Shown in pieces: positions 32,317 through 49,681 of a DNA stretch of 53,238 bases. Made by a program: the position numbers and the translations under genes. The notes under the pieces are model-generated. The model was not told the origin of the DNA. It did no database searches and saw only the letters and a program-made list of their open reading frames with translations. The stretch is from positions 1-53,238 of the forward strand of contig RDNZ01000017.1 in the NCBI GenBank assembly GCA_011364905.1, written 5' to 3'. Source of the DNA: Candidatus Thorarchaeota archaeon. Lineage in GTDB: Archaea; Asgardarchaeota; Thorarchaeia; Thorarchaeales; Thorarchaeaceae. Each line of letters opens with the position of its first letter. Within the stretch, counting starts at the first letter, position 1.

Positions 32317-35300
32317 GTGACCGACGTCACATCATTTGCCAGAAGTGTCAGAATTGAAAAGAGCAAAGCATCGGCACTACTTCTTCTAGCTCTTCTCACT
32401 CTTCCATCGCTCATTGCTAGTGCGGCTCCAATAAACGACAATGCAACTCTAGGAACGTCAGAACTGATTCAAGAGTTACAACCAGCTCCCGATGAGTCGA
32501 TTGACAAAGAGGCAGTGATCGAACAAGCTCAATCGTTTATGAGAAGCCAGTTTACTGAGAATAAAGGACAGGTAGGAAATGACGAGGTCATGTTCTACGG
32601 AAATATACCAAATGGCATGATTGGTTTTGGTATCAGTAGGGTCTTCGTCTGGCTCGAAGGTTCAGATAGAAGCATGATTTTCGATTTCGTTGATTCCAAT
32701 CAAGTCGTTCCTAGTGGTGGTTGTGTAACATTTTCAAGATCGAATTACTTCCTTGGAGACCGTGGCACCTACACTGATATCAATTCCTTTACTGAAATTT
32801 GGTATCCCAATTTATGGTCTGGAATTGACCTTGTATATAGAGCTACACCTAATGGTGCAAAATATGAATATCATGTGGCTCCGGGAGCAGACCCTCAGAA
32901 CATAGCAGTAGATGTTCAGAATTATGATGAGTTACTTGTTTCAGACACATCCCTAATTGTCAAGACATCTGGTCTACCTTTCTTTGATAATGGTCTCATA
33001 GCTTTTCAAGACATGACTGAAGTAAAGGTAGGATTTGACCAGATTGGTTCATCAACATTTGGTTTCAGTATAGAGTCTTATGACAATAGCAAGTCCCTCA
33101 TAATTGACCCGCTCATTTACTCTACATATGTTGGTGGTGACTCTGAGGAGAACCCCCAAGATGTAGCCATTGATTCCACAGGCGCTGCATATGTTACCGG
33201 AAGTACACACTCTGAAGGCTTTCCAATGGTGAATCCGTTTGACGGAACATTTAGTGGTCCCTCTGGGGGTTCAGATATTTTTGTCTACAAATTGAATGCA
33301 GCTGGTAACGGGTTAATCTATTCCACCTACGTTGCTGGTAATGAATGGGAAACCGGGTGGGGAATTGAGGTTGATAGTTCAGGCTACGCATATGTTGCTG
33401 GCTTCACAAGGAGTGATGATTTTCCAACAGTCAATGCCTATGATAGCACATACGATTTTGGAATGGATTGTGTTGTTTTCAAACTAAATCAGACAGGAAA
33501 TGGATTGGAGTTTTCGACATATGTTGGCGGCAGTTGGTACTATGATGAAGCATATGATTTAGCTATTGACGCAACTGGAAATTCCTATGTGACGGGGTAT
33601 ACTCAATCAACTAATTTCCCAAGGGTGAATGCGTATGATAGCTCTCACAATGGAGGAGATGACTGTTTCATCTTCAAGTTGTCATCCACCGGTAGTACGA
33701 TGATATACTCAACTTTCTTTGGTGGATCAGGAGATGACAGAGGACGCTCGATAGATATTGATCAGTTTGGTAATGCCTATGTAACAGGTCAAACGACTTC
33801 ATCTGATTTACCTATAATCAACGGGATTGATGACACATATAGTGGTTCGACTGATTGTTTTGTGTTGAAGCTAAGTTCTGCAGGTAATGTTGTTGATTAT
33901 TCATCATATTTGGGCGGGACAGGTATTGACGAAGGATATGGGATTAGAGTTAAAGATGTCAATCAGACCTATATCACCGGAGGTACTACATCTGTTGATT
34001 TCCCTGCAACTGGTGGGTATGACTCGTCACATAATGGAGATCGAGATATTTTCCTGACATATCTCAATATTGCAGACAACACGATGCCCTACTCCACGTA
34101 TATCGGTGGGACCGGATATGAACGAGCAGATGCCCTCCACATAGATGACTATGGATCCGTCTATCTCGTAGGATTCACCTTATCCTCCGATTTCCCAATG
34201 ATTAATTCTTACGATGATACCTACGACGGAAACTCAGATGCCTTCGTTTTGAAGGTGAATAGTGCTGGAACAAGTATTCTCTATTCGACCTTCTTTGGTG
34301 GAGCTGATTATGACTATGGACGAGGGATTGCAGTAGACTCTGATGGATATGCATATGTCGTCGTAGACACTAATGGTGGGGTCCCTATTGTATCAGCGTA
34401 TGATGCAACCTATAACGGAGGAAGTGATCCTTGTTCTTTCAAGCTTGCAGATTTGGGAGATAGTGATTCTGACCTTTTGATAGACTATCTTGAAGTCATG
34501 AACGGAACTGACAGGTATAATCCAGACTCCGACTTCGATAAGGTGAAAGACGGACATGAGGTCATCCTCTATGGCACTGATCCTCTCAACGCGTCTGAGC
34601 CAACCTGGGCAAGTACAGTAGGTTACTCGACCTTAGTTGGAGGGTCAAGTGAGGACATCCCCACGGATATCACAGTGGATCACCTTGGAAACGTGTATGT
34701 GGTGGGTATAACACACTCAACTGATTTCCCCATGTACATGAGCTTTAATGATACCTATGCTGGGGCTTGGTATGACGCTTTTGTGTTCAAACTGTCTCCC
34801 GATGGGAGTAATCTAATCTTCTCAACATTCATTGGTGGTTCAGGCGAGGACTATGGACTTGCGATTGAAGTTGATGTACTTCAGAATGTCTATGTGACTG
34901 GTGTGACAGAATCATCTGATTTCCCAATTTTCAATGCGCTCTTTGACTCATACACCGATACTGACTGCTTTGTCCTCAAACTGAATCCATCAGGGGACAC
35001 ATTGATTTTCTCAACCTTTGTCGCAGGAGGAAATACAGATGAACCATGGGACATTTTTGTTGATTCCTCCTACAATGTATATGTTTCAGGAACTACTTAC
35101 TCTACTGACTTCCCGACGGTAAATGCCTATGATTCTGTATATGATGGCATTGGCTCTGAGTGTTTCGTATTCAAACTGAATAGCACTGGCAACGGTCTTT
35201 TTTACTCGACGTACTTTGGTGGAAATAGCACTGAAGAGGTTGGTGTACTTGCAGTAGACGAGTCCGGTTCTGTTTACCTTACAGGTATGACTGAATCAAA

Positions 35301-38300
35301 GGACCTCCCTTTGAAGAATCCTTTTGACAGCATCAATGAAGACCATGACCTCTTTCTCTGTAAACTCAACTCAACTGGAAATGGTCTGGAATTCTCGACC
35401 TACTTAGGTGGTAGTGGTTACGAGATCGTATGTAGCATTCAGTTAGATTCAGCTGGAGATATCTACATTTGCGGATCAGCTATGGCATCTGAATTTCCAT
35501 ATACCACCATGATTGGTAGTAGTGCCGACTCTGACGATATCTTCGTAATGAAGTTCAACTCGACTGGTAATGGATTGATTTTCTCAACAATCGTTGCAGG
35601 AACTGATTGGGATGAGCCTCTCAGTATGGAAATCGATTCCACTGGTGCTGCCTACGTAGCAAGTCCAACAGACTCCATCGATCTTCCTGTAGTGAATACA
35701 GATCTCTCGCCTCCCGGGAGTTATGATTCGTATGTCATGAAACTAAGCCCAGATGGCACTCACCTCGAGTTCTCTAGCTACATTGGAGGTTCAGGTATAG
35801 ACACTGATCCATACCTTGCTTTAGACTCATTTGGTAGGGTTTATGTCACTAGCTTAACAACATCCTCAGACATCCCCTTCGTCAATGAGTATGATGACAC
35901 ACCTAACGGTGGTGATGATGTCTTTGTCATTCGTCTTGACTGGTCCATCGATAGTGACTCAGATGGATTGCCTGATTTCTGGGAGGATGAGTTCGGTCTC
36001 AACTCATCAGACGCCAGCGATGCGTTAGAGAACTGGGATGCTGACGGCCTCACAAACATTGAGGAGTATCAGAACAGTTGTGATCCGACTGATGATGACA
36101 CAGACAATGACACACTTTCTGACAGTGATGAGGTCTATGTGTACGGAACCAATCCTACCAACAATGACACAGATTATGACCTCATGCCTGACAACTGGGA
36201 AATTCTAAATTCGTTGAATCCTCTTCTTGATGATTCAAGTGGTGATTTAGATGCTGACCAAATTTCAAACATTGTAGAGTATCAAATTGGGAGTGACCCT
36301 GATGACAGTGACACAGACAATGACCTGATGCCTGATGGTTGGGAGTATCAGAACAGTCTTGATGTCTTGGTTAATGATGCGGATGATGATGCAGACACTG
36401 ATGATGCCACCAATCTTCTTGAGTTCAACGCAGGGACAGATCCTAATGATCCTGACAGTGATGATGATCTTCTAACTGATGGACAAGAACTCAATACCTA
36501 TTCTACAGACCCACTAGATCCAGATTCAGACAATGACAACTTGACAGACTTCCAAGAGATCATCACTTATGGTACGAACCCATTAGTTGTAGACTCGGAT
36601 CTCGATAATCTGAGTGATGGTGACGAAGTCCTACTGTATTCAACCAATCCACTGGATGTAACTGATCCTGGTTGGAACGAAGCATTGACATACTCATCGT
36701 ATTTTGGAGGTAGTTCATCCGACAATGCTTGGGACATCGCTTTAGACTCTGCAGGTAACATCTATGTCGTGGGTTCTACCTACTCTTCAAACCTGCCATT
36801 AATGAACCAGTATGACGGAACCTTAGCAGGTACAACCGACTGCTTTGTTATGAAGATGGATCCCACAGGTTCTACTCTACTCTTCTCAACCTATATCGGC
36901 GGCGGCTCGTCTGAGAATGGGCGAGTAATCGAGGTAGACGAGTCTGGTAACGTATTTGTTTGTGGAGACACACAAAGTAGTGACTTTCCCACTGTTAGCG
37001 CATACCAGTCCTCTCATGCAGGTAGCTATGATCTTTTTGTTCTCAAACTTCACAGTTCTGGCAGTAGTTTGATTTACTCCACATATCTCGGAGGTAGTGA
37101 GCATGAACTTGAACCAGGAATGTGTATTGACAACGATGGTAACGCCTACATTGTTGGTAGAACTGGTTCATCTGACTTTCCGGTTTTCAATGGATATGAC
37201 ATGACCCACGATTCAATGTCTGATGGATTCCTCACAAAAATAAACGCCACGGGCAATGGTGTTTACTTCAGCACATTTGTTGGAACAAATGGAGATGATT
37301 TTGCTTCTGCAGTAGCAATTGATAGTGGTAGGAATATCTACGTTGCCGGTAGGACATCATCATATGTTGGATTCTCCACATCTGGGGCTTATGACGAAAT
37401 ACACAACGGTGGATATGATGCCTATGTCCTGAGAGTTGATTCTACAGGTTCTACTCTCGAATACTGCACTTACTTAGGTGGCGGACTGGGCGTTGGTTCT
37501 GGCACAGTTGAATATTATGAGTTTGCTGAGGACATCGCAGTCGACCTGAATGGTTCAGTATATGTTACGGGTTTTGCCAGGTCATACAACTTCCCGGTAG
37601 TCAATGGATTTCCCAAGCCTGAAAGTGGTGGCGATGATTGTTTTGTAGCTAAATTCAACCCGGACCTTAGTAGTCTCCTTTACTCTACATTCCTTGGCGG
37701 TCAAAGTGATGATCAGGGCTACTCAATCTTTGTTGATTCATTGGGTAATGCTTACGTGACCGGTTATACAGACTCACCCGAATTCCCAGTTAAGATTCCG
37801 TACGATGGTATTTTTGGAGGGTCATCGGACATCTTCGTTTCAAAGATTAATGCAACTGGGAACGGGCTTCACTTCTCTACTTTCATTGGTGGAAGTGATA
37901 CAGACAGAGCCTATGGGATTGCACTTAATGCAACTGGTTTTATCCACATTGCAGGCTATACCTACTCAACTGACTTTCCAAAGCTCAATCCATATGATGG
38001 TACTTATAGTCAAACTGAGTGCGCTATTGTCATTCTCGCTGACTTCAGCGATTCAGACTCAGATGGGCTCAGTGACTACAATGAAAGCCTCATTGGCACA
38101 GACCGTCTGAGTTGGGATAGTGACTCTGATTCGTTAAGTGATAAAGACGAATTGGATGTTTACCTGACTGATCCATTGAGTAATGACACTGACCTCGACC
38201 TGATGCCTGATGGCTGGGAGGTCGGACTCGGTCTAGATCCAAACTCAGATGACTCGATGGGAGATCTAGACACTGACGGTTTAGAGAACGTGTACGAGTT

Positions 38301-41300
38301 CCTATATGGTACATTGGCTGACAATAATGACACAGACTCTGATACACTACTCGACGGTTTGGAGGTCTACACCTATGGTACTGACCCACTCAGTGTTGAC
38401 ACAGACTCTGACATGTTGTTAGACCCAGACGAGATTTTCGTGTATGGAACTGATCCAACGACACCGTACAGTGATTCAGACATAATGCCCGATGGCTGGG
38501 AGATTCAACATGGACTCAATCCACTGGCTGATGACTCAGGTGGAGACCCTGACACAGACCTCTTGGTGAATGAAGATGAGTATATTTGGGGCACAGACCC
38601 TCAAAATCCGGATACAGATCTGGATTCATTCACCGATGGGTATGAAGTCCATACTCTTGGTTCGGACCCATTGGATCCACTCTCGCCTCTTAGTTCGAAA
38701 GAGCCAGAGTTTTCCACGTTCATTGGGGGAAGTAGTGATGACACCTTCTATGATGCCATTGTAGACTCTGAAGGCAACATCTACATCACTGGATACGTCA
38801 AATCATCCAATTTCCCGATTGTCGGAGCATATGACGGAACCTACAATGGAAACTGGGACACTGTCGTTGTTAAGTTGAACTCCACTGGAAATGGAGTAGT
38901 ATTCTCAACCTATATAGGCGGCTCCAACGATGAACGAGGTCTCGAGTTCTACATTGGCACGGACTTCTCGGTGTGGTTTACCGGATATACTGCGTCCTCG
39001 AACTTTCCAACGGTGAATGCCTACGATAGCACCTACAATGGAGGGTGGGACGGATTCATAGTTCATCTGAGTGCCAATGGCTCATCGCTCCTCTACTCGA
39101 CATTCATTGGAGGTAGTGGTGATGACCTGGCAGAGTTCATCACATTTGATGATGACGGGTATCTCTATCTATCAGGTTTCACGCGCTCCTCGAATTTCCC
39201 CGTGGTTAATGGTTATGATACCACATTCAATGGGGACCGTGATGCATTTGCCCTGAAGATGCAGCCAGATCTTCACGGCTTTGTCTTTTCGACATTCCTT
39301 GGTGGGTCTGGGTATGACTATACCTATGGTTCCCGAATTGCTGCAAATGGTGACTTCCTCATTGCTGGGGTCACTACATCGACTAACTTCCCCATGCTCA
39401 ATTCATTCGACTCAACCTACAACGGTGGTGACGACATATTCGTCACAAGGTTGAATGCCGCAGGTAACGCCCTCATTTTTTCAACCTACATCGGAGGTTC
39501 AGGAGAGGAATATTTCGGAAAATTCGATCTTGATCAACAAGAGAATCTCCTAATGGGAGGTTCAACAATGTCTTCGGACTTTCCGACTCGTAACGCCTAT
39601 GATTCCACGTTCAACGGGGGAAGAGACGCATTTGCCCTTAAGCTAGCCAGCAATGGTAGTGCTTTGTACTTCTCGACATACATCGGCGGAAGTGGAAGCG
39701 ATACAGTATATGGGGTCCAGGTTGACAGATGGAACAACATCCACCTCTCTGGTGTAACCACCTCCACTGACCTTCCGGTAAAGAACGCGTTCCAGAATGA
39801 GTCACAGGGCATGGATGACACCTTTGTGTTCAAGATAAATAGCACAGGGAACGGCCTGCTCTACTCGACATACCTAGGCGGTTCTGCTGATGATGGGCAA
39901 CGTGGTATGGCAATTGATAAGCTTGGTCGTGTCTATATAGTCGGATGGACGCAGTCTTCAGACCATCCAGTTGTAAACGCCTACGATGATACAATTAACA
40001 GCGTGTCTGATGGATTCATCACATGCTTCCGGCCCTTGGATGATGAAGACTCTGATGGTATACCAGACGATATCGAAATCTTGCTTGGCACAAACCGGTT
40101 TTCAAATGACTCTGATTCAGACTCGATGATTGATGGATGGGAATACTTCCACGGGCTTGATCCGCTTGTCAACGATTCATATCTCGACCTTGATTCTGAT
40201 TCACTGTTGAACATAGAGGAGTACGCTCTAGGCACGTTTCCAGAAACCAATGACACAGATTCGGATATGATGCCAGACGCCTATGAAGTGTTCTATGGTC
40301 TGAATCCATGGGTGAATGATGCTTCTACCAGCCTCGACAATGACTCGTTGTCAAACTTATTGGAATATCAACTTGGTACCTTGCCGAATTATTGGGACTC
40401 TGACTACGACCTGATGCCTGATGATTTCGAGTACTGGTATGGACTTGATCCTCTAGTGGATGATGCTGATGGTGATTTAGACTCAGACACTTTGACCAAT
40501 CTAGAGGAGTTCTATATTGGAACATTTCCGAATAACATTGACTCTGATTACGACCTGATGCCAGACGGATGGGAGGTTGATAATGGCCTACTCCCATGGT
40601 TTGATGATGGCGGGGATGATCACGATGGTGACGATTTGACTAATTATGAGGAGTTCGTCCTAGGTACAGACCCACAAGATAGCGACTCCGACTCCGATTT
40701 GATGCCAGATGGGTGGGAGTACTCCTATGGTCTCGATCCGTTGGTGAATGATGCAGGACTTGATGGTGATTCCGATGGCCTGTCAAACCTCGGTGAATAC
40801 AATGCACAAACTGACCCGACTAATTCTGATTCCGACTCTGACCTCATGCCAGATGGTTGGGAGGTCTCCAATGGTCTTAATCCGATAGCTGATGACGCGA
40901 GTAATGATCCAGATTCAGACACCTTAACGAACCTTGAAGAATATCTCAATGGAACTGATCCCCTCAGCTCAGATAGCGATTCTGACACAATGCCTGATGG
41001 ATGGGAGCTTGACAATGGTCTAAATCCTCTACTCGATGATGGTGATGCGGATGCAGATTCTGACGAACTATCAAATGCCCTGGAGTATGAGTACGGAACA
41101 GATCCTCAGGTTGCTGATAGTGACTCTGACAATTTGATTGATGGTCAAGAGATTACCTATGGCACCGACCCCCTCATCGACGATACGGATATCGATATGC
41201 TACTTGATGGAGACGAAGTCCATCAATACGGAACCGACCCAACATTGTACGACACGGACCATGATACATTATCGGATGGTGAAGAAGTATTGATTTATGG

Positions 41301-43986
41301 AACAAACCCGCTTCTAGCGGACAGTGACTTTGATGGTTTATCAGACTCTCAGGAGATTGCCATGGGCCTTAACCCGATGATCAACAACTTCGTCGCGAAT
41401 GCAGGCATCATTATCGCAGTTGTAGCAATCATCGTAGTGGTGATTGTTTACTGGAGGAAGGTCCGCATTCCTCAGCAGAAGGCAAAGAAGCGACAGATGG
41501 TTGAGCTTTTCATCGAGAACAGCAGGGAACGAGGGGAGGTCGATGACTATTATATTGAGGAGAACTCGCCCTTGTGGTATGTTGGGACCATCTTTGCATC
41601 TTACAAGAAGAAAGGAGGCAAACAGAGAGATCCCGCTCCGGTCCTTGAACACTTAGTGACCAACGAATTCCCAGGAAGCTTTGAACAGGGAGCAGAGAAG
41701 ACGCTGATGGGCATGTGCCTTGAACTTGCTGCACATCAGGAGTTCTCATTCCTCTCATGGCTGAGTGCAGCTATCACCAAGAAGATGGCGGCTGGGCAGT
41801 TCTCGTTGAAACTGAAAGATAATGACTTCAGAATGAAATGTTGGCAGGTGGCACAGTTAGGAACTCCTGCTTGGAGGTCACGTGGACTAACAAATGAAGA
41901 TAGGGCAAAACTGTCAAACATCATTACAGAGCTGCAGAGTAAAAAGGATCTCCAAGACGAGTTCATCCCCTATGTCGCTCAAGTGTTGATGGTCTCATGG
42001 GACAGCTCAGCAATGTCTCGCTCGTGGATTGCGGATCTGTTCAAACCAATGTCATTTGAATACAAGTTTGAATTCCTAATGCAGTTTCGTAAGGTCGGTG
42101 GGACCTATGAGAAGATGTTGTTGCTTGATGGCATACTGAGCGGAATCAAACTCAAGGAGCTCTTAGATAAACCTGAGGAGGAGTGGGAGAAGATAATCTC
42201 CGAAATTGTAGGAGCCGGATACGCCAGTAGACCAATTCCTTTTGACACAGATGACATTGCTGGGTTCCCCTTTGAGAAACGCTTCAGCATGGCTTCTGTG
42301 ATCCAGAAGAACAAGACAGACCTCAAGAACGAAGAGAGCTTCTCTAAACTCCTCTTTGTTGACGCAAAGGACCACAAGAAGTTCTATGACTACGAGATTC
42401 CTCAGGGCATCCTAACGCATAGTATGAACATGCTGAAGAGCCGTGTCCGTGAAACTCCTGCCTACATCAGCATCAATCGTGTTGGCATACTGAGCGTGCT
42501 TCGTGAATACCAAGATAAGCGGATAGATTTGGAAACGATGATGTCGTTTGTGAATAATGTTCCAGAAAGTATTCAGGATAAGATTCATGCCAATCCTGGC
42601 ACACGTGGAGCCTTCAGATATGCAATTAGTACAGTCATCATCGAGAAAGTCAGGAAAAGCGACTTCGATTCAGTAGCGCCGCTTTTGAAGATCTATCGCG
42701 AACCGTTTGATCTTGTTCTCAACTTTGTGGAAAAGACGATTAATCAGACTCTTGTGGCTCATGGCAATGACAAGAATCTGCAGCAGTTCTTACTCACACT
42801 ACAGGCTGAACTCCTAGAGTCTGGTTCTGACAAGAAGAGTGTCAGGAAGATTGTAGATTGGTTGAAGCTTTGGAGTCTGATCTATGAAACGACAAAAGGT
42901 GCAAAGCAACATCATGGATATGTGGCTGGTTTACTCGACGTGGTTAAGGAAACAAAGGGATCTTTTGAACCCAGAGCGATAACCGAACAAGTCCTGACTA
43001 TCATAAATGACGAGTTTGAAAGAACCGTCAGAATATTCAGAGGTACTCCGCGACTAGACAACCTGACATATCGAACTAGAACTGATGCAGCCAAGGCATG
43101 GATGGAATCAGTAAAACATGCGTACTACAAACTCCTACTGATGGCCGATAATAGCGGACTCGAACTCTCCGATGATGACCGGGACCATATGAGAAAGGTT
43201 GCGCACGAGATTCTAGGATTCGTCATAAGGGTCAGGAGAGAGGACTTCCTTGAGAGAATGGAGCATTTCCCGATAGACATTGGTGATGTCATAGACCCAG
43301 GGCATCTGCTAAAGAGTAGCATTGAGAAGTCCCATTTCGTCCTTCTTCCCGAATCGTTCCACACCTTTCCATTACCTGCACTGATAGTGCTGAACGAGTT
43401 TCTTAGGAATCCCATCAGACTGCCATTTGTCGGAAACAAGCAGCAAGGAGTTCTGATTAACCCGATGTTCTGGGTGTTTGGGGCCTCAATTAGCCTGGCT
43501 CTTATACCGACCATGGTGATGGCTGAGCAAACATACAGCAATTATTTCATCGGGGAGTACCTAAAGACTGCTGCATTGGCGGTGAAGCAGGCAGAAGAAC
43601 CCATTGGAAAACTGCTCATCAAGGTTGACCCCAACCTGACAGCTGAGAATATGATTGTGAAGTCATTCAAGCAGCTTATGGATTTGCATTACCTACAAGG
43701 AGTCATAACGAGAGAGATGGTTATTGTTGCCCTCGAGTTTGGAGGTTGGAATACTGCTCTTGCGGACAAGATCATCGAGGAGAAAGACTACTGTGTATAC
43801 TGCTCGTTCGAGCTGCCAAAAGACGCTGAAACATGCCCCAACTGCGGAAAGCCCGTCGTGGTGCTTGATGTGTCAGCCATCACGCCGGATGAAGTACAAG
43901 TAGACCTCTCTGAACTTGGTCTCGATATGGCCGAAGGCGGTCCAACCGAGCCTAGACCTGGTGGCGGAGGTTTGGAGGTGGAATAA
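32317..43986 (+). CDS. giant (3889 aa) surface/receptor-like protein: signal peptide, four SBBP beta-propeller modules, D-x-D-x-DG Ca-binding repeat tracts, TM helix, ~840-aa C-terminal region with zinc ribbon
   Basis: FTENKGQ N-domain. Repeated YSTY.GGS..D....IA.D..G..YV.G.T.S.DFP blades. DSD.D.MPDGWE...GL.P repeats. TM AGIIIAVVAIIVVVIVYW at 41401-41454. CVYC/CPNC near the end. GTG start after GAGGTGGAG. Confidence 0.9.
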   Translation: MTDVTSFARSVRIEKSKASALLLLALLTLPSLIASAAPINDNATLGTSELIQELQPAPDESIDKEAVIEQAQSFMRSQFTENKGQVGNDEVMFYGNIPNGMIGFGISRVFVWLEGSDRSMIFDFVDSNQVVPSGGCVTFSRSNYFLGDRGTYTDINSFTEIWYPNLWSGIDLVYRATPNGAKYEYHVAPGADPQNIAVDVQNYDELLVSDTSLIVKTSGLPFFDNGLIAFQDMTEVKVGFDQIGSSTFGFSIESYDNSKSLIIDPLIYSTYVGGDSEENPQDVAIDSTGAAYVTGSTHSEGFPMVNPFDGTFSGPSGGSDIFVYKLNAAGNGLIYSTYVAGNEWETGWGIEVDSSGYAYVAGFTRSDDFPTVNAYDSTYDFGMDCVVFKLNQTGNGLEFSTYVGGSWYYDEAYDLAIDATGNSYVTGYTQSTNFPRVNAYDSSHNGGDDCFIFKLSSTGSTMIYSTFFGGSGDDRGRSIDIDQFGNAYVTGQTTSSDLPIINGIDDTYSGSTDCFVLKLSSAGNVVDYSSYLGGTGIDEGYGIRVKDVNQTYITGGTTSVDFPATGGYDSSHNGDRDIFLTYLNIADNTMPYSTYIGGTGYERADALHIDDYGSVYLVGFTLSSDFPMINSYDDTYDGNSDAFVLKVNSAGTSILYSTFFGGADYDYGRGIAVDSDGYAYVVVDTNGGVPIVSAYDATYNGGSDPCSFKLADLGDSDSDLLIDYLEVMNGTDRYNPDSDFDKVKDGHEVILYGTDPLNASEPTWASTVGYSTLVGGSSEDIPTDITVDHLGNVYVVGITHSTDFPMYMSFNDTYAGAWYDAFVFKLSPDGSNLIFSTFIGGSGEDYGLAIEVDVLQNVYVTGVTESSDFPIFNALFDSYTDTDCFVLKLNPSGDTLIFSTFVAGGNTDEPWDIFVDSSYNVYVSGTTYSTDFPTVNAYDSVYDGIGSECFVFKLNSTGNGLFYSTYFGGNSTEEVGVLAVDESGSVYLTGMTESKDLPLKNPFDSINEDHDLFLCKLNSTGNGLEFSTYLGGSGYEIVCSIQLDSAGDIYICGSAMASEFPYTTMIGSSADSDDIFVMKFNSTGNGLIFSTIVAGTDWDEPLSMEIDSTGAAYVASPTDSIDLPVVNTDLSPPGSYDSYVMKLSPDGTHLEFSSYIGGSGIDTDPYLALDSFGRVYVTSLTTSSDIPFVNEYDDTPNGGDDVFVIRLDWSIDSDSDGLPDFWEDEFGLNSSDASDALENWDADGLTNIEEYQNSCDPTDDDTDNDTLSDSDEVYVYGTNPTNNDTDYDLMPDNWEILNSLNPLLDDSSGDLDADQISNIVEYQIGSDPDDSDTDNDLMPDGWEYQNSLDVLVNDADDDADTDDATNLLEFNAGTDPNDPDSDDDLLTDGQELNTYSTDPLDPDSDNDNLTDFQEIITYGTNPLVVDSDLDNLSDGDEVLLYSTNPLDVTDPGWNEALTYSSYFGGSSSDNAWDIALDSAGNIYVVGSTYSSNLPLMNQYDGTLAGTTDCFVMKMDPTGSTLLFSTYIGGGSSENGRVIEVDESGNVFVCGDTQSSDFPTVSAYQSSHAGSYDLFVLKLHSSGSSLIYSTYLGGSEHELEPGMCIDNDGNAYIVGRTGSSDFPVFNGYDMTHDSMSDGFLTKINATGNGVYFSTFVGTNGDDFASAVAIDSGRNIYVAGRTSSYVGFSTSGAYDEIHNGGYDAYVLRVDSTGSTLEYCTYLGGGLGVGSGTVEYYEFAEDIAVDLNGSVYVTGFARSYNFPVVNGFPKPESGGDDCFVAKFNPDLSSLLYSTFLGGQSDDQGYSIFVDSLGNAYVTGYTDSPEFPVKIPYDGIFGGSSDIFVSKINATGNGLHFSTFIGGSDTDRAYGIALNATGFIHIAGYTYSTDFPKLNPYDGTYSQTECAIVILADFSDSDSDGLSDYNESLIGTDRLSWDSDSDSLSDKDELDVYLTDPLSNDTDLDLMPDGWEVGLGLDPNSDDSMGDLDTDGLENVYEFLYGTLADNNDTDSDTLLDGLEVYTYGTDPLSVDTDSDMLLDPDEIFVYGTDPTTPYSDSDIMPDGWEIQHGLNPLADDSGGDPDTDLLVNEDEYIWGTDPQNPDTDLDSFTDGYEVHTLGSDPLDPLSPLSSKEPEFSTFIGGSSDDTFYDAIVDSEGNIYITGYVKSSNFPIVGAYDGTYNGNWDTVVVKLNSTGNGVVFSTYIGGSNDERGLEFYIGTDFSVWFTGYTASSNFPTVNAYDSTYNGGWDGFIVHLSANGSSLLYSTFIGGSGDDLAEFITFDDDGYLYLSGFTRSSNFPVVNGYDTTFNGDRDAFALKMQPDLHGFVFSTFLGGSGYDYTYGSRIAANGDFLIAGVTTSTNFPMLNSFDSTYNGGDDIFVTRLNAAGNALIFSTYIGGSGEEYFGKFDLDQQENLLMGGSTMSSDFPTRNAYDSTFNGGRDAFALKLASNGSALYFSTYIGGSGSDTVYGVQVDRWNNIHLSGVTTSTDLPVKNAFQNESQGMDDTFVFKINSTGNGLLYSTYLGGSADDGQRGMAIDKLGRVYIVGWTQSSDHPVVNAYDDTINSVSDGFITCFRPLDDEDSDGIPDDIEILLGTNRFSNDSDSDSMIDGWEYFHGLDPLVNDSYLDLDSDSLLNIEEYALGTFPETNDTDSDMMPDAYEVFYGLNPWVNDASTSLDNDSLSNLLEYQLGTLPNYWDSDYDLMPDDFEYWYGLDPLVDDADGDLDSDTLTNLEEFYIGTFPNNIDSDYDLMPDGWEVDNGLLPWFDDGGDDHDGDDLTNYEEFVLGTDPQDSDSDSDLMPDGWEYSYGLDPLVNDAGLDGDSDGLSNLGEYNAQTDPTNSDSDSDLMPDGWEVSNGLNPIADDASNDPDSDTLTNLEEYLNGTDPLSSDSDSDTMPDGWELDNGLNPLLDDGDADADSDELSNALEYEYGTDPQVADSDSDNLIDGQEITYGTDPLIDDTDIDMLLDGDEVHQYGTDPTLYDTDHDTLSDGEEVLIYGTNPLLADSDFDGLSDSQEIAMGLNPMINNFVANAGIIIAVVAIIVVVIVYWRKVRIPQQKAKKRQMVELFIENSRERGEVDDYYIEENSPLWYVGTIFASYKKKGGKQRDPAPVLEHLVTNEFPGSFEQGAEKTLMGMCLELAAHQEFSFLSWLSAAITKKMAAGQFSLKLKDNDFRMKCWQVAQLGTPAWRSRGLTNEDRAKLSNIITELQSKKDLQDEFIPYVAQVLMVSWDSSAMSRSWIADLFKPMSFEYKFEFLMQFRKVGGTYEKMLLLDGILSGIKLKELLDKPEEEWEKIISEIVGAGYASRPIPFDTDDIAGFPFEKRFSMASVIQKNKTDLKNEESFSKLLFVDAKDHKKFYDYEIPQGILTHSMNMLKSRVRETPAYISINRVGILSVLREYQDKRIDLETMMSFVNNVPESIQDKIHANPGTRGAFRYAISTVIIEKVRKSDFDSVAPLLKIYREPFDLVLNFVEKTINQTLVAHGNDKNLQQFLLTLQAELLESGSDKKSVRKIVDWLKLWSLIYETTKGAKQHHGYVAGLLDVVKETKGSFEPRAITEQVLTIINDEFERTVRIFRGTPRLDNLTYRTRTDAAKAWMESVKHAYYKLLLMADNSGLELSDDDRDHMRKVAHEILGFVIRVRREDFLERMEHFPIDIGDVIDPGHLLKSSIEKSHFVLLPESFHTFPLPALIVLNEFLRNPIRLPFVGNKQQGVLINPMFWVFGASISLALIPTMVMAEQTYSNYFIGEYLKTAALAVKQAEEPIGKLLIKVDPNLTAENMIVKSFKQLMDLHYLQGVITREMVIVALEFGGWNTALADKIIEEKDYCVYCSFELPKDAETCPNCGKPVVVLDVSAITPDEVQVDLSELGLDMAEGGPTEPRPGGGGLEVE

Positions 43987-43989
43987 CAT

Positions 43990-44691
43990 ATGATGAATTT
44001 AAAGTTAGAAGATTTCGGTCTGTTGCATCCGATTTACCCTAAAGGAACTATGAAATTCAAAGGAACAGGTTTGATGACAGCAAAGACATTGAAGCTATGT
44101 CCTAACTGTTTGTTGCCAGGAAACATCATGGAGCACTTTGGCCCATTTGTCGTCGGAATGTGGAGAGTGACCATCCCCATTTCCACCCATAGGGAATGTA
44201 GTTCTGGCTGGTCAAATAGGAACATTTCAGGAAGTACACGGGTTTGGGCCGAATCAGGGTATCCCGGATACATATGTTTTGACTTCAAGAATCCAGTCTA
44301 TGCAATGCTCTTTTCAAGAATCAACTTTCAGGCTTTGTTTGATGGCGGAGGTCGACCACTGACTGCAAGATACGATGATGAACTTGCAAGACTTAGAAGG
44401 GTCCAGAGAGAACGCCAAAACAAGTTGGGAACATGTCCAAGGTGTAAAAATGACCTCTATGAGGAAGCAGATTCGTGTCCCTCTTGCGGGCTCAGTAGGA
44501 AAACGTCATGGGTGAGAATGACGCCAAGACCGAGTGAAGAAGTAACAGAGTCAATGGAGAGCTTAGAAGTTGTTGTCAAATGCGCCGAGTGCGGAACACT
44601 GATGCTCAAAGAACCAAAGTTGAAAAACTGCGGAAAGTGTGGAAGCCCACTCAAGGACCAGGAATCAAAAGAGGAAACGGAAACCGCATAG
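43990..44691 (+). CDS. multi-zinc-ribbon protein, probably co-transcribed with the giant gene
   Basis: CPNC/HREC, CPRC-CPSC and CAEC-CGKC; starts 3 nt after the giant gene stop. Confidence 0.8.
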   Translation: MMNLKLEDFGLLHPIYPKGTMKFKGTGLMTAKTLKLCPNCLLPGNIMEHFGPFVVGMWRVTIPISTHRECSSGWSNRNISGSTRVWAESGYPGYICFDFKNPVYAMLFSRINFQALFDGGGRPLTARYDDELARLRRVQRERQNKLGTCPRCKNDLYEEADSCPSCGLSRKTSWVRMTPRPSEEVTESMESLEVVVKCAECGTLMLKEPKLKNCGKCGSPLKDQESKEETETA

Positions 44692-44698
44692 AACCAAC

Positions 44699-45616
44699 TC
44701 ATTGTTCAAAAAACTCAATCTCAATTGGTTGGTTCCTAATGACATAGTACTGTTTGAGTTTGAGCTTGACAGAACTATTGGTTTCTCTCTGACTGTCATA
44801 ATAGGCAAACAGGCGGACCGCACAATTGTACCCAGCAGAGATACCTATGTATCCACTATCAAGTGTCAGGTTTACAGGTTGGGATACGACATCAATTGGG
44901 GCCCATCCGATTTGAGGATCATAGACCTCAGCCCATGAATGCATCTTCCATGAACGACGATGCCGCTGTAGACCCACCATTGCTCTAGAGGGGATGTTAT
45001 TGTTTCTAGCTAGAGCTAGGAAGAGATGAACAAAGTCGCTACATGTGCCTCGTCGAGACCTCAGGGTTTCAAGTGCGCCTCTGTAGTTTTTGTCCTGCAA
45101 ATCGTAGCTATAAACGATGTATGTATTCACCCATTGCGCAATTGCGCGGACAGCAGACCAAAAGCTTTGGTCCTCATTTACAATCTCGCTAGCCAATTGG
45201 CTGATCTCATCAGCACCGGTCTCAATATAGTCATGCGATTCCAGATAGTCCGCGATATCAGGAATTTCTTTTAAAATTTCAGGGAGGTCAGCAATACTGG
45301 TAGCATCACTAATCCTGTATGGATTGCGCCTTTCGAAATCTATGTTCAAGATAATATTTGCACTTGCTTGTTTAGTGCGCGGATCAAATGCTTGATGATT
45401 GATTTCGAGGTTGTATAATGTCGACCATCTCTCATGAGTCACCTTGAAGGGATGGTTTATGCCAATTAGCTCAATCTTTTGGCGTGGGTCAGATGAAGGG
45501 CACTTAAGAAAAACACGGAGCGTGTCGAAATCTCCATCAACATGATTCAGCATTGTATGAATGATGACCATGTTATTCCAACGAGGTATTGACACGCAGG
45601 TTAACTCTCCGAACAA
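44699..45616 (-). CDS. transglutaminase-like cysteine protease/ligase
   Basis: GTCSDFVHLFLALAR..NIPSR, HSWAEVY and GWAPID (Cys-His-Asp triad). Start is TTG 45616 or ATG 45571. Confidence 0.92.
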   Translation of the reverse strand: MFGELTCVSIPRWNNMVIIHTMLNHVDGDFDTLRVFLKCPSSDPRQKIELIGINHPFKVTHERWSTLYNLEINHQAFDPRTKQASANIILNIDFERRNPYRISDATSIADLPEILKEIPDIADYLESHDYIETGADEISQLASEIVNEDQSFWSAVRAIAQWVNTYIVYSYDLQDKNYRGALETLRSRRGTCSDFVHLFLALARNNNIPSRAMVGLQRHRRSWKMHSWAEVYDPQIGWAPIDVVSQPVNLTLDSGYIGISAGYNCAVRLFAYYDSQRETNSSVKLKLKQYYVIRNQPIEIEFFEQ

Positions 45617-45671
45617 GTGCTTGAGCTATTGGTGGCATCGATTTTGAGATTTACTATTCTGCAATTAGACC

Positions 45672-47033
45672 TTATTCATCGTCGTCTTCGATATCTTCCT
45701 CTTCTGAATACTCGAGTTCTTCGTCTTCGTGCTCAGTCTGATCCTCATCAACAGTATCATCTTCCCCGGAAACTTCAGCTTCATCCTCGGCTTCAACCTC
45801 GTCGGGCTCTTCCTCCTCTTCCTCTGGCGCTTCAACATCAGCGGATCTTGGAGCCTCCTTTACAAGGAAGTCTCTATACATGGTGGCTCTCGGGAAGTAC
45901 TCAACAATCGTACGATAGAGGCCTCTACTGTCTGACGCAAGCACAAGTAGGTTAACATCTTTCGGTCGTTTTCCGAAGAATCCAGGCTTTTTCCTTTTCA
46001 CATAGACCTCAATTATTTTGATGATTGTGGGATACCCGTAATCGCTGTAGTCTTGTTCGTGTCGAATCTTGACATCAATCCGAGATATGGTGTCCCATTC
46101 TACAAGATTTGCCGACAGATGTGACATCGTTTCATGCCAAATGTAGAGAATTCCATCGGGTTTTATGGCGAAGGTTGTCGGAACCAAGACATCTTCCAAC
46201 TGGAAATTCTGTCTAACGGTTTCAAGCTGCCGTCTCCAATCAAGTGCCAAATCCTTAGAGTATGTTGGCCGAGTATCCATCTTCGATAGTAGCTCCTCCA
46301 GGTAGTCAACTTTCATCATCATGGTATTGAGCTTGAACTCATTCTCTTCCATCGGGATGAATGCGTTTATCAATTCGGTGTCACCAATCTCCCTTGCTGA
46401 TTCAGAAGACTGCAGAACACGACGGAACTCGTTGAGGAACTCCATCTCGACAGAATTGCTCACATCAGGTTGCAACGTTGAAACTTCGATTTCAGTGAAC
46501 TCCTCTTTTTCAAAAGACTTTGTTTCTGAGGACTCTGCGTCTGAATCATCATTGAGATCTTCACTTTCAACTAAGGTAGATGTTCTTTTCAGGATTCCAT
46601 TGAATCCCTTAACCGCATTGTTGATGGGATCCACGACGATACCAAGGAATTCCGGAGAGAGTCGGGTCAAGTCTCTGAAGCTCCTGAAGTCTGTCCCCGA
46701 AAAGAAGACTCCAAGACCAGGATGGGTATGAATCCAAGCCCCCGATCTGAAGTTGTACAACTCTTTCTTGTCTGAGGTAAGCCGAATAATCTGCTTTGTC
46801 ACAAGTGGGAACACTTCTTTTCTAAACTCACAGTAGGCACCGGATTGGATCTTCTGCGGTGGCAGGACAATACCTCTTACATGAAAGGTATCGCCTTCCT
46901 GAAATCCAACGCAAACACCGCCCCATTCTGATGCGCCATACAGTTTCGTATAGACTCGGAATTGCTCATATACAGATTCATCAATGGTTACACGTTGAGG
47001 AATCTCCGGTTGATCATAGTTTGATGTAATTAT
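45672..47033 (-). CDS. JAMM/MPN+ metallo-isopeptidase (Rpn11/AMSH-like) with coiled-coil, PH-like region and acidic tail; N-terminus extends beyond the ORF-track start
   Basis: WIHTHPGLGVFFSGTD (H-x-H-x7-S-x2-D) and GIVVDP. The frame stays open upstream of 46814 to 47054, encoding RVTIDESVY...SEWGGVCVG (catalytic Glu). The start is uncertain (ATA 47033, ATT 47030, CTG 47045 or ATA 47054). Confidence 0.88.
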   Translation of the reverse strand: MITSNYDQPEIPQRVTIDESVYEQFRVYTKLYGASEWGGVCVGFQEGDTFHVRGIVLPPQKIQSGAYCEFRKEVFPLVTKQIIRLTSDKKELYNFRSGAWIHTHPGLGVFFSGTDFRSFRDLTRLSPEFLGIVVDPINNAVKGFNGILKRTSTLVESEDLNDDSDAESSETKSFEKEEFTEIEVSTLQPDVSNSVEMEFLNEFRRVLQSSESAREIGDTELINAFIPMEENEFKLNTMMMKVDYLEELLSKMDTRPTYSKDLALDWRRQLETVRQNFQLEDVLVPTTFAIKPDGILYIWHETMSHLSANLVEWDTISRIDVKIRHEQDYSDYGYPTIIKIIEVYVKRKKPGFFGKRPKDVNLLVLASDSRGLYRTIVEYFPRATMYRDFLVKEAPRSADVEAPEEEEEEPDEVEAEDEAEVSGEDDTVDEDQTEHEDEELEYSEEEDIEDDDE

Positions 47034-47038
47034 AGGGT

Positions 47039-47043
47039 CCTCC
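47039..47043 (-). promoter_or_regulatory. Shine-Dalgarno-like GGAGG ahead of the candidate non-canonical JAMM start
   Basis: Minus strand reads GGAGG-ACCCT-ATA-ATT in the JAMM frame. Confidence 0.5.
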
Positions 47044-47050
47044 AGTTTTG

Positions 47051-48913
47051 CTATTCAGTGGGGAAGAATTCGAATGTGCTCTCTTCGGGTGGAAGATTGA
47101 GATGCTGAGGACAAGAATCTTTCATCTTGTGCCTGCAGTCCTTTCCAGCCTCACACTTCGCCAGCATCTGATAGCGCGGATAGTATTGCACGAAGTGTGT
47201 GACCTCAACATCTAGCTTTGAGAGACTGGCAACTGCAATAGCTGTCTGCATTGCGCCAATGGTCCCAATTGTAGACACAATTGAGGGAATTGGAATCTTG
47301 CCTGTACAACTGACGACCTCTCTCTGTTCCTTAGTTTCCTCCCCATACCGACATACGTAGCAGTCTGCATCAGGCATGAACAAGTCAACTTTCCCCTCGA
47401 ACCTCTCTGCTCCAGCACTGATGACCGGTATCTTCAGAAGCTTACCTAGGAGAGTCGAAACGTAACGCGTTCTTATGTTATCAGGTCCGCATATGAGGAG
47501 GTCCGATTGCGAAAGGGAATGCGCCAAAACTGATTCCTCTCGGAGGATGTCAAGTGGAATCTCGATACCATCTATGACCTGAGTCTTGCCCACGCCCTCA
47601 CTCTTCTTTTTCTCATACTCGTCCAAAGGCATAAAGTCCTTCATGACAATGGCATTTGCGGTTCCTATTTCAGTTTGCCAGGGCAAAGATACTACCTTGT
47701 TTGTGGGATTGATTTCGAGAAGTTTTTTCCGTGCAGCAATTGCTTTAGGTTTGCCTATTGAGTCTCGGTTGAAAAGGATTTGACGATTGAGATTATGCTC
47801 CTCCACCTCGGCATCATGATCGTTGAGAACAAGTGTGCAGTTCTCTGTGTTTGAAACACTGAATAAAGCAGTACTCCACGAACCAATGCCTCCCACTCCG
47901 AGGAAGTACACCGTCTTGTCAGTGAGCGATGTCGGTATTTTCACATCTCTGTCCTTGATGTATATCATATCCTCTCTCTGTTCGACTTTGGTTTCTGCTA
48001 ATGGAGAGAATAGAAGCGAAATAGTTGGTCTGAACATGTCGGGAGGGACATCATCTAGAATCTCTATCTGGTCTGTCAGCATTCGTGTGAGATAAGAGCC
48101 ACTAGGGAAGCCACACTTCAGTATAATTCGATCCGGATCCACTTCGACTGTTTCTTCTACTTTCCCCCCAACATAGCGCGTAGTTGTGGTGGTGAACTCC
48201 TCTATTTGCGTGTTTAGTATTTCCCCACCAATTTTCATCCTGACCTTGAAAGGTAGACTTTCTCGTTTTTTCTGCGAGTCCCTGACTTTCTGCAGGATTC
48301 CCCGTTGCTGAATCACACATCTCAGATTCAAGTCCCTCTGAAGTAGCTCCGATGGACGGATCAGCATATTTCGCCGCATGATTTCCGTCACAGCAAACCC
48401 AGCAGCCACTGCAGCCAAAGATGGAGTGAGGACATCAAACTCATGAGGTTCGATGACTGCTTGTCGAGTACCCATATAGGCTGCAGTCTTAGAACAGACA
48501 GCCCAAATTGGAGCTTCAGTTTCTGGCAGAATGAGAGAGTTAGTAGGGTCGCTGTTTGCACTTCCGGTTGCCACAACAGCATCATAGTTGTATGAATCAA
48601 GATCATCAATCCCGATTACAGCGATGTCCGATGCAATCTCACTCTTCACATGATCTCTGATTGCTTCCCAAAGTGGCCGTCCAACATCCTCTTTTTTCAA
48701 GAGGAGCTGACCTTTCACATCTTCCTCTCTGACTTTACGTTTCTTATAAAAGCCAATGAATCCTTGGGACGTTCCAAATCCAAGAAATGCAAGGTGTGTG
48801 ACCAAATAGCTGATCACTGGACCGGACCCCCCAATGAAAACTCGCATGTCCTCGATTCGTTCTTGGTACACCAGACCGACTTGTCGGTCAACACGCTCTG
48901 AGTATTTCACCAT
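47051..48913 (-). CDS. E1-like ubiquitin-activating enzyme with tandem ThiF/MoeB domains (degenerate N-terminal, active C-terminal)
   Basis: N-domain RVDRQ...RVFIGGSG...LAFLGFG. C-domain FLGVGGIGS, DHDAEVEEHNLNRQILF, GKPKA, PDNIRTR, CYVC, VSC and a C-terminal Cys/His cluster. ATG 48913 follows GAGGAG. Confidence 0.92.
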   Translation of the reverse strand: MVKYSERVDRQVGLVYQERIEDMRVFIGGSGPVISYLVTHLAFLGFGTSQGFIGFYKKRKVREEDVKGQLLLKKEDVGRPLWEAIRDHVKSEIASDIAVIGIDDLDSYNYDAVVATGSANSDPTNSLILPETEAPIWAVCSKTAAYMGTRQAVIEPHEFDVLTPSLAAVAAGFAVTEIMRRNMLIRPSELLQRDLNLRCVIQQRGILQKVRDSQKKRESLPFKVRMKIGGEILNTQIEEFTTTTTRYVGGKVEETVEVDPDRIILKCGFPSGSYLTRMLTDQIEILDDVPPDMFRPTISLLFSPLAETKVEQREDMIYIKDRDVKIPTSLTDKTVYFLGVGGIGSWSTALFSVSNTENCTLVLNDHDAEVEEHNLNRQILFNRDSIGKPKAIAARKKLLEINPTNKVVSLPWQTEIGTANAIVMKDFMPLDEYEKKKSEGVGKTQVIDGIEIPLDILREESVLAHSLSQSDLLICGPDNIRTRYVSTLLGKLLKIPVISAGAERFEGKVDLFMPDADCYVCRYGEETKEQREVVSCTGKIPIPSIVSTIGTIGAMQTAIAVASLSKLDVEVTHFVQYYPRYQMLAKCEAGKDCRHKMKDSCPQHLNLPPEESTFEFFPTE

Positions 48914-48987
48914 TTGAATAATATCTCCTCTACCATGATGCTTCGTAATTGCAGCCAGCAATGATTGTTATATGTCAAATTCATCCT

Positions 48988-49377
48988 TCATTTTCTTGCT
49001 GGGCTGTTGAAGTTCTCATTGTTCAGAATTCTCTTCACACCCTGAAGGAACGCCATGATATGACGGTATTTCTGGAGCTCATCTCTGAGGTTTCCCAGGC
49101 ACATGAAAGGATACTCCTTATTGAGCTTCGGACAGAGTTTCGGATGAAAGATGTTAATGTGCCTAATGTCCTTGTCCTCAATATTCAGGATGAAGATATC
49201 TGGCATTATGTTGGGGTAGTTTGAAAGGTCGATGAACGTATGATATGGTATCTTTGTTTTGTCGCCTTTTCCGACTACACCATCGATTACAACAGTGACA
49301 GCAAACACAAATTCACCTGATTGAGCCACAGGTTTGAGCGTGGGAAAGAGATCCTTTGCTTCTTCTAGCTGAGCCAT
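48988..49377 (-). CDS. UBC-like E2 ubiquitin-conjugating enzyme homologue
   Basis: YPNIMPDIFI (cf. YPxxPPxVxF), HINI (cf. HPNI), FMCL (cf. ICL; Cys93) and C-terminal NENFNSPA (cf. PNxxSPA). Sits between the Ubl and E1 genes. Confidence 0.8.
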   Translation of the reverse strand: MAQLEEAKDLFPTLKPVAQSGEFVFAVTVVIDGVVGKGDKTKIPYHTFIDLSNYPNIMPDIFILNIEDKDIRHINIFHPKLCPKLNKEYPFMCLGNLRDELQKYRHIMAFLQGVKRILNNENFNSPARK

Positions 49378-49441
49378 GTGAATAGGAGAAATCCCAGTTC
49401 ACTCCTGAACCTCTAGGTGCAATGAAGGTAAGAGAAACCGA

Positions 49442-49681
49442 TCAAGCTCCACCAGCAATGTCCTGGCCGGGAGTGATATGAGCTACGCACTCACGTTCCC
49501 CGATAGGAAGATCGGTAATATCGTTACCATCTGTATCTAAAACAGTCCACATCACTTCTGGCGGTGCAAGAGAATAGCTCCTAACCAACTCACCATAAGT
49601 GATGTTCTTGTCAGATGCAATTACAACGTTTCGACGCCCATTAAGGGTGTTAATTACCTGAATTTCTGTTTCCTCGGTCAT
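49442..49681 (-). CDS. ubiquitin-like (beta-grasp) protein precursor ending in Gly-Gly-Ala
   Basis: 79 aa with a beta-beta-alpha-beta pattern (IQVIN, NVVIA, TYGELVRSY, WTVLD, VAHIT), C-terminus IAGGA*, and first position in the E2/E1/JAMM cluster. Confidence 0.82.
   Translation of the reverse strand: MTEETEIQVINTLNGRRNVVIASDKNITYGELVRSYSLAPPEVMWTVLDTDGNDITDLPIGERECVAHITPGQDIAGGA

Follow-up and report, generated by a model that had tools for sequence, protein, structure and literature searches.

Probable AUU initiation of a JAMM metalloprotease gene in a Thorarchaeota archaeon, with comparative indications of the same start signal in other genes of the lineage

The Rpn11-like JAMM protein of Caldiarchaeum subterraneum (PDB 6FJU and 6FNO) and Rpn11/PSMD14 share the MPN+ fold and the signature E...HxHx7Sx2D with a protein encoded on contig RDNZ01000017.1 (positions 1 to 53,238) of Candidatus Thorarchaeota archaeon (GCA_011364905.1; genome G000). 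This whole stretch of 53,238 nucleotides (nt) is referred to below as the window. As in the Caldiarchaeum ubiquitin operon, the JAMM gene of the window adjoins an E1-like ThiF gene and a gene for a small protein ending in Gly-Gly-Ala. Unlike the Caldiarchaeum protein and Rpn11, the window protein is 452 amino acids (aa) long, has a C-terminal region of about 300 residues with an acidic tail, and matches the Pfam JAB profile only below the cut-off. The operon also differs in having a transglutaminase-like gene downstream and in the proposed start of its JAMM gene, which is ATT. The goal of this analysis was to locate that start.

In bacteria, infC, the gene for IF3, starts at AUU, and this codon is conserved between species rather than replaced by AUG. 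IF3 itself sets the fidelity of bacterial initiation. A rare ATT start has also been reported for ebpA of Enterococcus faecalis, for which the annotated downstream ATG was wrong (PMC4447247). The proposed start of the JAMM gene resembles both in being of the AUU type and in following a Shine-Dalgarno (SD) sequence; those cases are bacterial, whereas the machinery here is archaeal (aIF1, aIF1A, and aIF2). In Deinococcus deserti, N-terminal proteomics is reported to have revealed an unusual use of non-canonical initiation codons and to have refined the annotation (PMC2830850). That example is a bacterium with protein-level proof, whereas the evidence presented here is comparative, with conservation across 20–25 species per gene. 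In ribosome profiling of the archaeon Haloferax volcanii, near-cognates of AUG made up approximately 30% of the putative alternative sites of initiation; they were treated as potential false positives and put aside, with no link to conserved genes (PMC7261190). By comparison, the cases described below would be primary, sole available, and conserved starts. A literature search found no description of AUU, AUC, or AUA starts in Thorarchaeota or other Asgard archaea.

The JAMM frame lies on the minus strand and is open from an ATA at 47054 to the stop codon at 45674–45672, a total of 460 codons; a TGA at 47057–47055 closes it upstream. Its translation begins IAKLEDPIITSNYDQPEIPQRVTIDESVYEQFRVYTKLYGASEWGG..., as it did in the first-pass annotation of this DNA. 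The 80 codons that span 47054–46815 are free of ATG, GTG, and TTG, and the first canonical start is the GTG at 46814, which is codon 81. The first-pass annotation had described this start-less leader, and its coordinates agree with ours. The ATA at 47054–47052 overlaps the stop codon of the E1-like gene (TAG, 47053–47051). Because canonical start codons (ATG, GTG, and TTG together) make up 5.6% of the codons in the long open reading frames (ORFs) of the genome, the probability of 80 codons without one is approximately 0.01, and the leader is thus more than a chance occurrence. Among the 2244 coding-like ORFs of the genome it ranks as the third-longest leader without a start, and it is the most coding-like of the seven start-less leaders that reach 60 codons. 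In the window, only a non-canonical start codon reaches the N-terminal half of the MPN domain. The features of the gene are as follows.

45675–47030, minus strand: JAMM/MPN+ coding sequence, 452 aa from ATT, with its stop codon at 45672–45674; 12 homologues align over it.
47028–47030, minus strand: proposed start codon ATT (AUU), 8 nt 3' of GGAGG, matching the ATG column of G002/P0003 and P0009.
47039–47043, minus strand: SD sequence GGAGG, complementary to CCUCC of the 16S 3' end and conserved in orthologues.
47031–47054, minus strand: the eight in-frame codons that separate ATT from the E1 stop, carrying the SD sequence; the equivalent in G002 contains an in-frame TAA.
46815–47027, minus strand: hidden part of the MPN domain, with strand 1, helix 1, strands 2 and 3, the catalytic Glu, and the first part of helix 2.
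46926–46928, minus strand: codon of the catalytic Glu (in E-W-G-G; E43 of the open frame), invariant in 13/13 sequences and 5' of the first canonical start.
46812–46814, minus strand: first canonical start, GTG (codon 81), inside predicted helix 2; a truncated annotation would begin here.
46689–46730, minus strand: zinc-binding JAMM motif H-T-H-x7-S-x2-D (H109, H111, S119, and D122), invariant in 13/13 sequences.

In these lines and below, G denotes genomes, L DNA loci, P protein homologues, and C contigs of G000.

Twelve homologues of 265–503 aa were aligned with the window protein to give a set of 13 sequences; all of them are from Thorarchaeota where the source gives a name. The first-pass annotation had left room for homologues that lack the upstream segment, and the segment is present in 12/12. 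E43, H109, H111, S119, and D122 are invariant throughout the alignment, and the extended protein contains the complete signature E...HxHx7Sx2D, with HTHPGLGVFFSGTD as its zinc-binding stretch. A Pfam search with the extended ORF matched JAB over residues 20–134 (profile positions 4–116 of 117, E 0.0035), which is below the gathering score, and the same search with the GTG-started form gave no domain. The curated Pfam thresholds were missed both for JAB (PF01398; score 17.6 bits, threshold 22.5) and for Prok-JAB (PF14464; score 17.0, threshold 25). When a profile of the family was compared with the PDB, the Rpn11 motif was matched at E 2.4e-9, and the Caldiarchaeum Rpn11 homologue, CSN5, and AMSH were also matched. 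It is the zinc-binding stretch that aligns with Rpn11, CSN5, and AMSH.

The structure of the first 162 residues from ATT was modeled with AlphaFold2 (AF2). Model quality is modest (pLDDT 61, pTM 0.60), and strands and helices follow an MPN-like order: strand 13–16, helix 18–31, strands 38–45 and 48–55, and helix 69–87. In a Foldseek search with this model, the top 50 matches listed were all MPN-domain chains, with E values of approximately 1e-5, 129–149 aligned columns, and TM-scores of 0.37–0.47; the best were Rpn11, the Caldiarchaeum Rpn11 homologue, CSN5, BRCC36, and AMSH. Judged by motif and predicted fold, and with the Pfam cut-off failed, the protein is a divergent member of the MPN+/JAMM family. 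The first-pass reading of the upstream codons as MPN strand 1, helix 1, and the catalytic Glu is borne out by the invariance of E43 in all 13 sequences and by the AF2 order. Because the GTG at 46814 falls inside predicted helix 2, a product begun there would lack strands 1–3, helix 1, and the catalytic Glu. The truncation that the first-pass annotation expected of automated annotation is found among the homologues, in which gene callers began P0001 at TTG and P0002 at GTG inside helix 1. The C-terminal region of about 300 residues (window 45675–46540, minus strand) is conserved among the homologues, has no Pfam match, and ends in a long acidic Asp/Glu tail.

Selection on the hidden segment was examined as the ratio of nonsynonymous to synonymous substitution rates (dN/dS), with L013 as the reference. 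This locus is the closest DNA compared (88% protein identity) and comes from a different metagenome; dS was 0.31–0.62. The dN/dS value was 0.065 for residues 17–80 and 0.010 for residues 81–150. For codons 1–16 it was 0.86 on few sites, and this part looks unconstrained. The window protein, P0001, and P0002 are approximately equidistant, with 18–19 private replacements each (19 in the window). None of the window lineage's replacements fall in residues 17–150, compared with three and two in the P0001 and P0002 lineages, respectively. These low ratios, together with the lack of window-lineage replacements in residues 17–150, disfavor a pseudogene; the hidden segment is under strong purifying selection and, by this measure, translated.

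The position of the start was examined by means of SD spacing and orthologue comparison. The 3' end of the 16S rRNA (contig C24) is ...GGATCACCTCCT and carries CCUCC, the complement of GGAGG. In the genome, the spacing from GGAGG to a canonical start is 7, 8, 9, or 10 nt in 63, 37, 35, and 30 cases, respectively, and 5 nt in only 2 of approximately 230. After the GGAGG at 47043–47039, the spacing is 8 nt for the ATT at 47030 and 5 nt for the ATA at 47033; these elements, like the ATA over the E1 stop, lie where the first-pass annotation had placed them. In the alignment of loci, the start column is ATT in the window, L022, and L023, ATC in L013 and L016, and ATA in L015, and in all six of these orthologues (window included) a perfect GGAGG lies exactly 8 nt 5' of that codon. 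The GGAGG is kept at the nucleotide level while the overlapping amino acids change (L/P, E, D/G/E). In the genome, GAG accounts for 49% of the Glu codons and 21% of codons end in G. A scan for relatives yielded none in metagenome contigs and one in genome contigs.

Orthologues with ATG also exist, so that the question of whether related genes have ATG at this position has a divided answer: G002 and P0009 have it, L024 and L021 have it beside the column, and the six loci above have ATT, ATC, or ATA. The ATG of the congener G002 (the same as L014 and L018) falls in the same DNA-alignment column as ATT, those of L024 and L021 fall within one residue of it, and in the protein alignment the Met of P0009 is aligned with the Ile of the ATT codon. 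None of G002, L024, and L021 has a perfect GGAGG. In G002, an in-frame TAA lies between the E1 stop and the ATG. We prefer the AUU at 47030 because it has the best SD spacing, because it occupies the ATG column of G002 and P0009, and because GGAGG stands 8 nt upstream in all six loci. The first-pass annotation had proposed initiation at AUA, AUU, or CUG; in the window, a non-canonical start does prove to be the only way into the N-terminal half, and its three candidates are narrowed to AUU 47030. The signal GGAGG plus 8 nt plus ATT, ATC, or ATA appears from the alignment to be the usual start signal of this JAMM family, and the ATG of G002 would then be a derived state. The eight codons 47031–47054 are probably an untranslated spacer holding the SD sequence.

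Two other histories of the start codon were considered. That ATT is a mutated ATG, as the ATG of G002 might indicate, was rejected when the wider alignment showed ATT, ATC, or ATA in other orthologues. Loss of an ancestral ATG overlapping the E1 stop was superseded, because GGAGG plus 8 nt plus ATT, ATC, or ATA is kept even beside an upstream ATG or GTG.

Taken together, the comparisons make it probable, to a degree we consider high, that translation from AUU 47030–47028 after GGAGG yields a full-length MPN+/JAMM metalloprotease of the active type, 452 aa long. Initiation could proceed as follows. The small ribosomal subunit would be anchored by pairing of the mRNA GGAGG (47043–47039) with the 16S rRNA's CCUCC, and this SD/anti-SD duplex would bring AUU, 8 nt downstream, into the P site. 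The CAU initiator tRNA would pair with AUU at two of three bases; presumably Met would be inserted, with the mismatch tolerated with the help of the perfect SD sequence. Because the start lies 20 nt past the E1 stop, ribosomes ending E1 may also feed the JAMM start. Decoding of AUU as Met by the initiator tRNA, and the efficiency with which it occurs, are what we infer from this arrangement. A search for an unusual initiator tRNA found none in the bin, whose tRNA set is incomplete; the initiator tRNA has the CAU anticodon and A1:U72. ARAGORN predicted a tRNA-SeC(tca) in the Thorarchaeota bin. An ATT, ATC, or ATA start of aIF1, as for infC-like autoregulation, was also sought; aIF1 appears to begin at GTG, and unlike for infC, no autoregulatory loop is evident here.

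A genome-wide scan was performed for coding-like ORFs whose Pfam domain begins 5' of the first canonical start, and loci of the candidate genes were compared among relatives. Four genes with the same type of start signal are listed by their positions in G000.

C60, 10816–10830, plus strand: NTP-transferase, start at 10828; GGAGG plus 7 nt plus ATT (15), ATC (8), or ATA (2) in 25/25 genomes of the genus (loci L034–L058).
C79, 1159–1174, minus strand: GNAT acetyltransferase, start at 1161; GGAGG plus 8 nt plus ATT (9), ATC (9), or ATA (3) in 21/21 genomes of the genus, never ATG (loci L087–L107).
C95, 51245–51262, plus strand: ribosomal protein eS25, start at 51260; GGAGA plus 9 nt plus ATC or ATT in 21/22 genomes of the genus and 8/8 of a second genus (loci L059–L080 and L134–L153).
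C21, 4737–4752, minus strand: HTH_20 regulator, start at 4739; GGAGG plus 8 nt plus ATC in G000 only (loci L108–L133).

The NTP-transferase gene never has ATG in the 25 genomes of the genus, and many of its loci have an in-frame stop four codons upstream; the N-terminus of the protein is IHGVILAAGKGER. The eS25 gene has no canonical start ahead of its domain. At the position of the proposed start codon, other genera of the Thorarchaeaceae have TTG, GTG, or ATG, and other Asgard families have ATG. For the HTH_20 regulator, most congeners have an ATG six codons upstream; G000 has AAT there together with a new GGAGG plus 8 nt plus ATC; on this comparison, the change to a non-canonical start is specific to this lineage. 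At these starts the JAMM, NTP-transferase, and GNAT genes have the perfect GGAGG as SD sequence, and eS25 has the weaker GGAGA. A filtered enrichment test in G000 was limited to in-frame codons at least eight codons 5' of the first canonical start. GGAGG stood 7–9 nt upstream in 8/251 of the near-cognates (ATT, ATC, ATA, and CTG) and in 8/2423 of the other codons (odds ratio 9.9, P 3.6e-5).

The complete lack of ATG at these sites across 20–25 species per gene, even though a single mutation would produce it, suggests that the non-AUG start is selected, as in bacterial infC. We tentatively propose, as a possibility somewhat short of even, that Thorarchaeaceae use SD-anchored AUU, AUC, and AUA, and perhaps also CUG, as selected starts of the eS25, NTP-transferase, GNAT, and JAMM genes, which would form a regulon sensitive to start-codon stringency, infC-like but run by the eukaryote-like aIF1/aIF2 machinery. 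A more radical version of this proposal would have the SD-anchored AUU, AUC, and AUA starts insert Ile. The first-pass annotation suggested that initiation at such codons may hold the deconjugase at a low level compared with E1/E2; the AUC and AUU starts of eS25 weaken this suggestion, as does the constant pairing of these codons with an SD sequence.

Additional candidates were recorded in the genome. Six candidate CTG starts have GGAGG or AGGAG 7–9 nt upstream and coding-like sequence downstream: C87:62092 (plus strand), C14:23933 (minus), C22:1086 (plus), C68:34054 (plus), C7:4772 (minus), and C34:11788 (plus). The gene at C87:62092 is that of a PmbA/TldD peptidase. Candidate ATT starts are C41:14780, C17:36662, and C25:8775 (minus strand) and C7:15477 and C44:740 (plus strand); the products of these five comprise two with signal-anchor-like N-termini, one GNAT (domain from about residue 9), and one HEAT-repeat protein.

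Several observations weigh against AUU initiation, in the JAMM gene or in the lineage at large. L015, L016, L022, and L023 have a canonical ATG, GTG, or TTG that lies five to seven codons upstream and overlaps or adjoins the E1 stop, and in these four loci the ATT, ATC, or ATA could be an ordinary internal Ile codon, with GGAGG kept for some other reason. The canonical codons chosen by gene callers in distant orthologues may be incidental or may be a second start; this is the main uncertainty. The initiator tRNA has the normal CAU anticodon, so that AUU requires a third-position mismatch, and a review of archaea gives only AUG, GUG, and UUG as start codons (PMC7531240). A genome test of codons near ORF 5' ends against codons deep within ORFs was weak, with 9 near and 87 deep for ATT (P 0.21) and P 0.024 for CTG. 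An annotation-free count of codons 7–10 nt after 5941 GGAGG sites had no power, since even ATG was only 1.06-fold enriched. Significance was reached in the filtered test alone.

Those upstream codons also bear on an alternative that we consider unlikely, in which the JAMM gene is started at a near-cognate codon 5' of ATT (ATA 47054, CTG 47045, or ATA 47033) by reinitiation after E1 termination. It would fit with the ATA that, both in the window and in L013, overlaps the E1 stop, with the ATG or GTG that overlaps it in L015, L016, and L022, and with the TTG of L023, which stands 2 nt after the stop at the position of CTG. Yet ATA 47054 and CTG 47045 have no SD sequence, ATA 47033 has the 5-nt spacing that is so rare in the genome, and the codons are not conserved as near-cognates: L022 has CCG at the CTG position, and ATT, ATC, or ATA is preceded elsewhere by AAA, GAA, or ACA. 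Moreover, the corresponding stretch of G002 contains an in-frame TAA. That same TAA stands against an E1-JAMM fusion protein made by programmed −1 frameshifting where E1 ends, a reading to which we give almost no weight. Relative to E1, JAMM is indeed in the −1 frame, and its frame becomes open just 4 nt ahead of the final base of the E1 stop, but the sole possible site, A-CUG-AAU-AG, is not a slippery heptamer, and a TGA in the JAMM frame two codons before the E1 stop leaves a one-codon window. No fused homologue was found among the matches; the "longer" length class was not searched.

Translation from AUU 47030 must also be weighed against a lost or masked start and against a start at GTG 46814. 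A recent pseudogene with a lost start, or a consensus base error masking an ATG, is very unlikely, although the TTG (codon 16) and GTG (codon 28) found in L013 are missing from the window only, and the completeness of the genome bin is 81% and its contamination 4.6%. The window lineage has zero replacements in the MPN domain where each sister has two or three, dN/dS is 0.01–0.07, ATT, ATC, or ATA with GGAGG occurs in five other independent assemblies, and three more gene families of the genus keep such starts. Equally hard to credit as the frameshift is a product of 380 aa begun at GTG 46814 and devoid of protease activity. That GTG is the first canonical start and the one that automated callers would pick; against it, the codon lies inside helix 2, the product would be without the catalytic Glu, strands 1–3, and helix 1, and Pfam gave no domain in it. 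The sequence that precedes it, agtttagaaaagaa, has no GGAGG, and the 64 strongly selected codons upstream would make no sense if they were untranslated.

The JAMM gene is part of an operon on the minus strand (window 44699–49681) with the order ubiquitin-like (Ubl-like, 79 aa), E2-like candidate (129 aa), E1 (ThiF), JAMM, and transglutaminase-like; this order is conserved in related loci. The operon was found in only 2/28 genomes of the genus and 3/87 of the class. The gene preceding JAMM is as follows.

47051–48913, minus strand: E1-like (ThiF) gene, with stop codon TAG at 47051–47053 and a likely start at ATG 48913; Pfam ThiF, E 2.8e-35, in three stretches.

E1 is upstream of JAMM in every locus, with E1 orthologues called at 620–625 aa, and the transglutaminase-like gene is 3' of JAMM in every locus with downstream DNA. 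The 79-aa Ubl-like candidate ends in ...IAGGA, and in the PDB it matched SAMP2 alone, and weakly (E 0.38). The 129-aa E2-like candidate has no Pfam or PDB match, and Atlas gave only the weak leads E2-CBASS and Prok-E2 (scores 0.86–0.87). Sequence searches of Pfam, PDB, and Atlas thus did not confirm the E2-like and Ubl identities. Beyond the transglutaminase-like gene, related loci that reach that far contain a gene of 184–233 aa on the opposite strand. In the window, the plus strand carries a 3889-aa ORF (32317–43986) with many repeated beta-propeller-like and Asp-rich units, followed by a 233-aa Cys-rich protein (43990–44691).

The annotated JAMM product would be judged catalytically dead, whereas the product predicted here carries a complete JAMM active site, from which the Thorarchaeota ubiquitin-like operon is predicted to have a deconjugating or processing enzyme. 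The lineage-wide pattern, for which the support is comparative, may be the more interesting result than the single gene. Standard gene callers take only ATG, GTG, and TTG, and would truncate, extend, or miss genes in this lineage, including eS25, which figures in presence/absence arguments concerning Asgard archaea and eukaryotic origins. Conserved non-AUG starts in organisms with eukaryotic-type initiation factors would also bear on the evolution of start-codon stringency.

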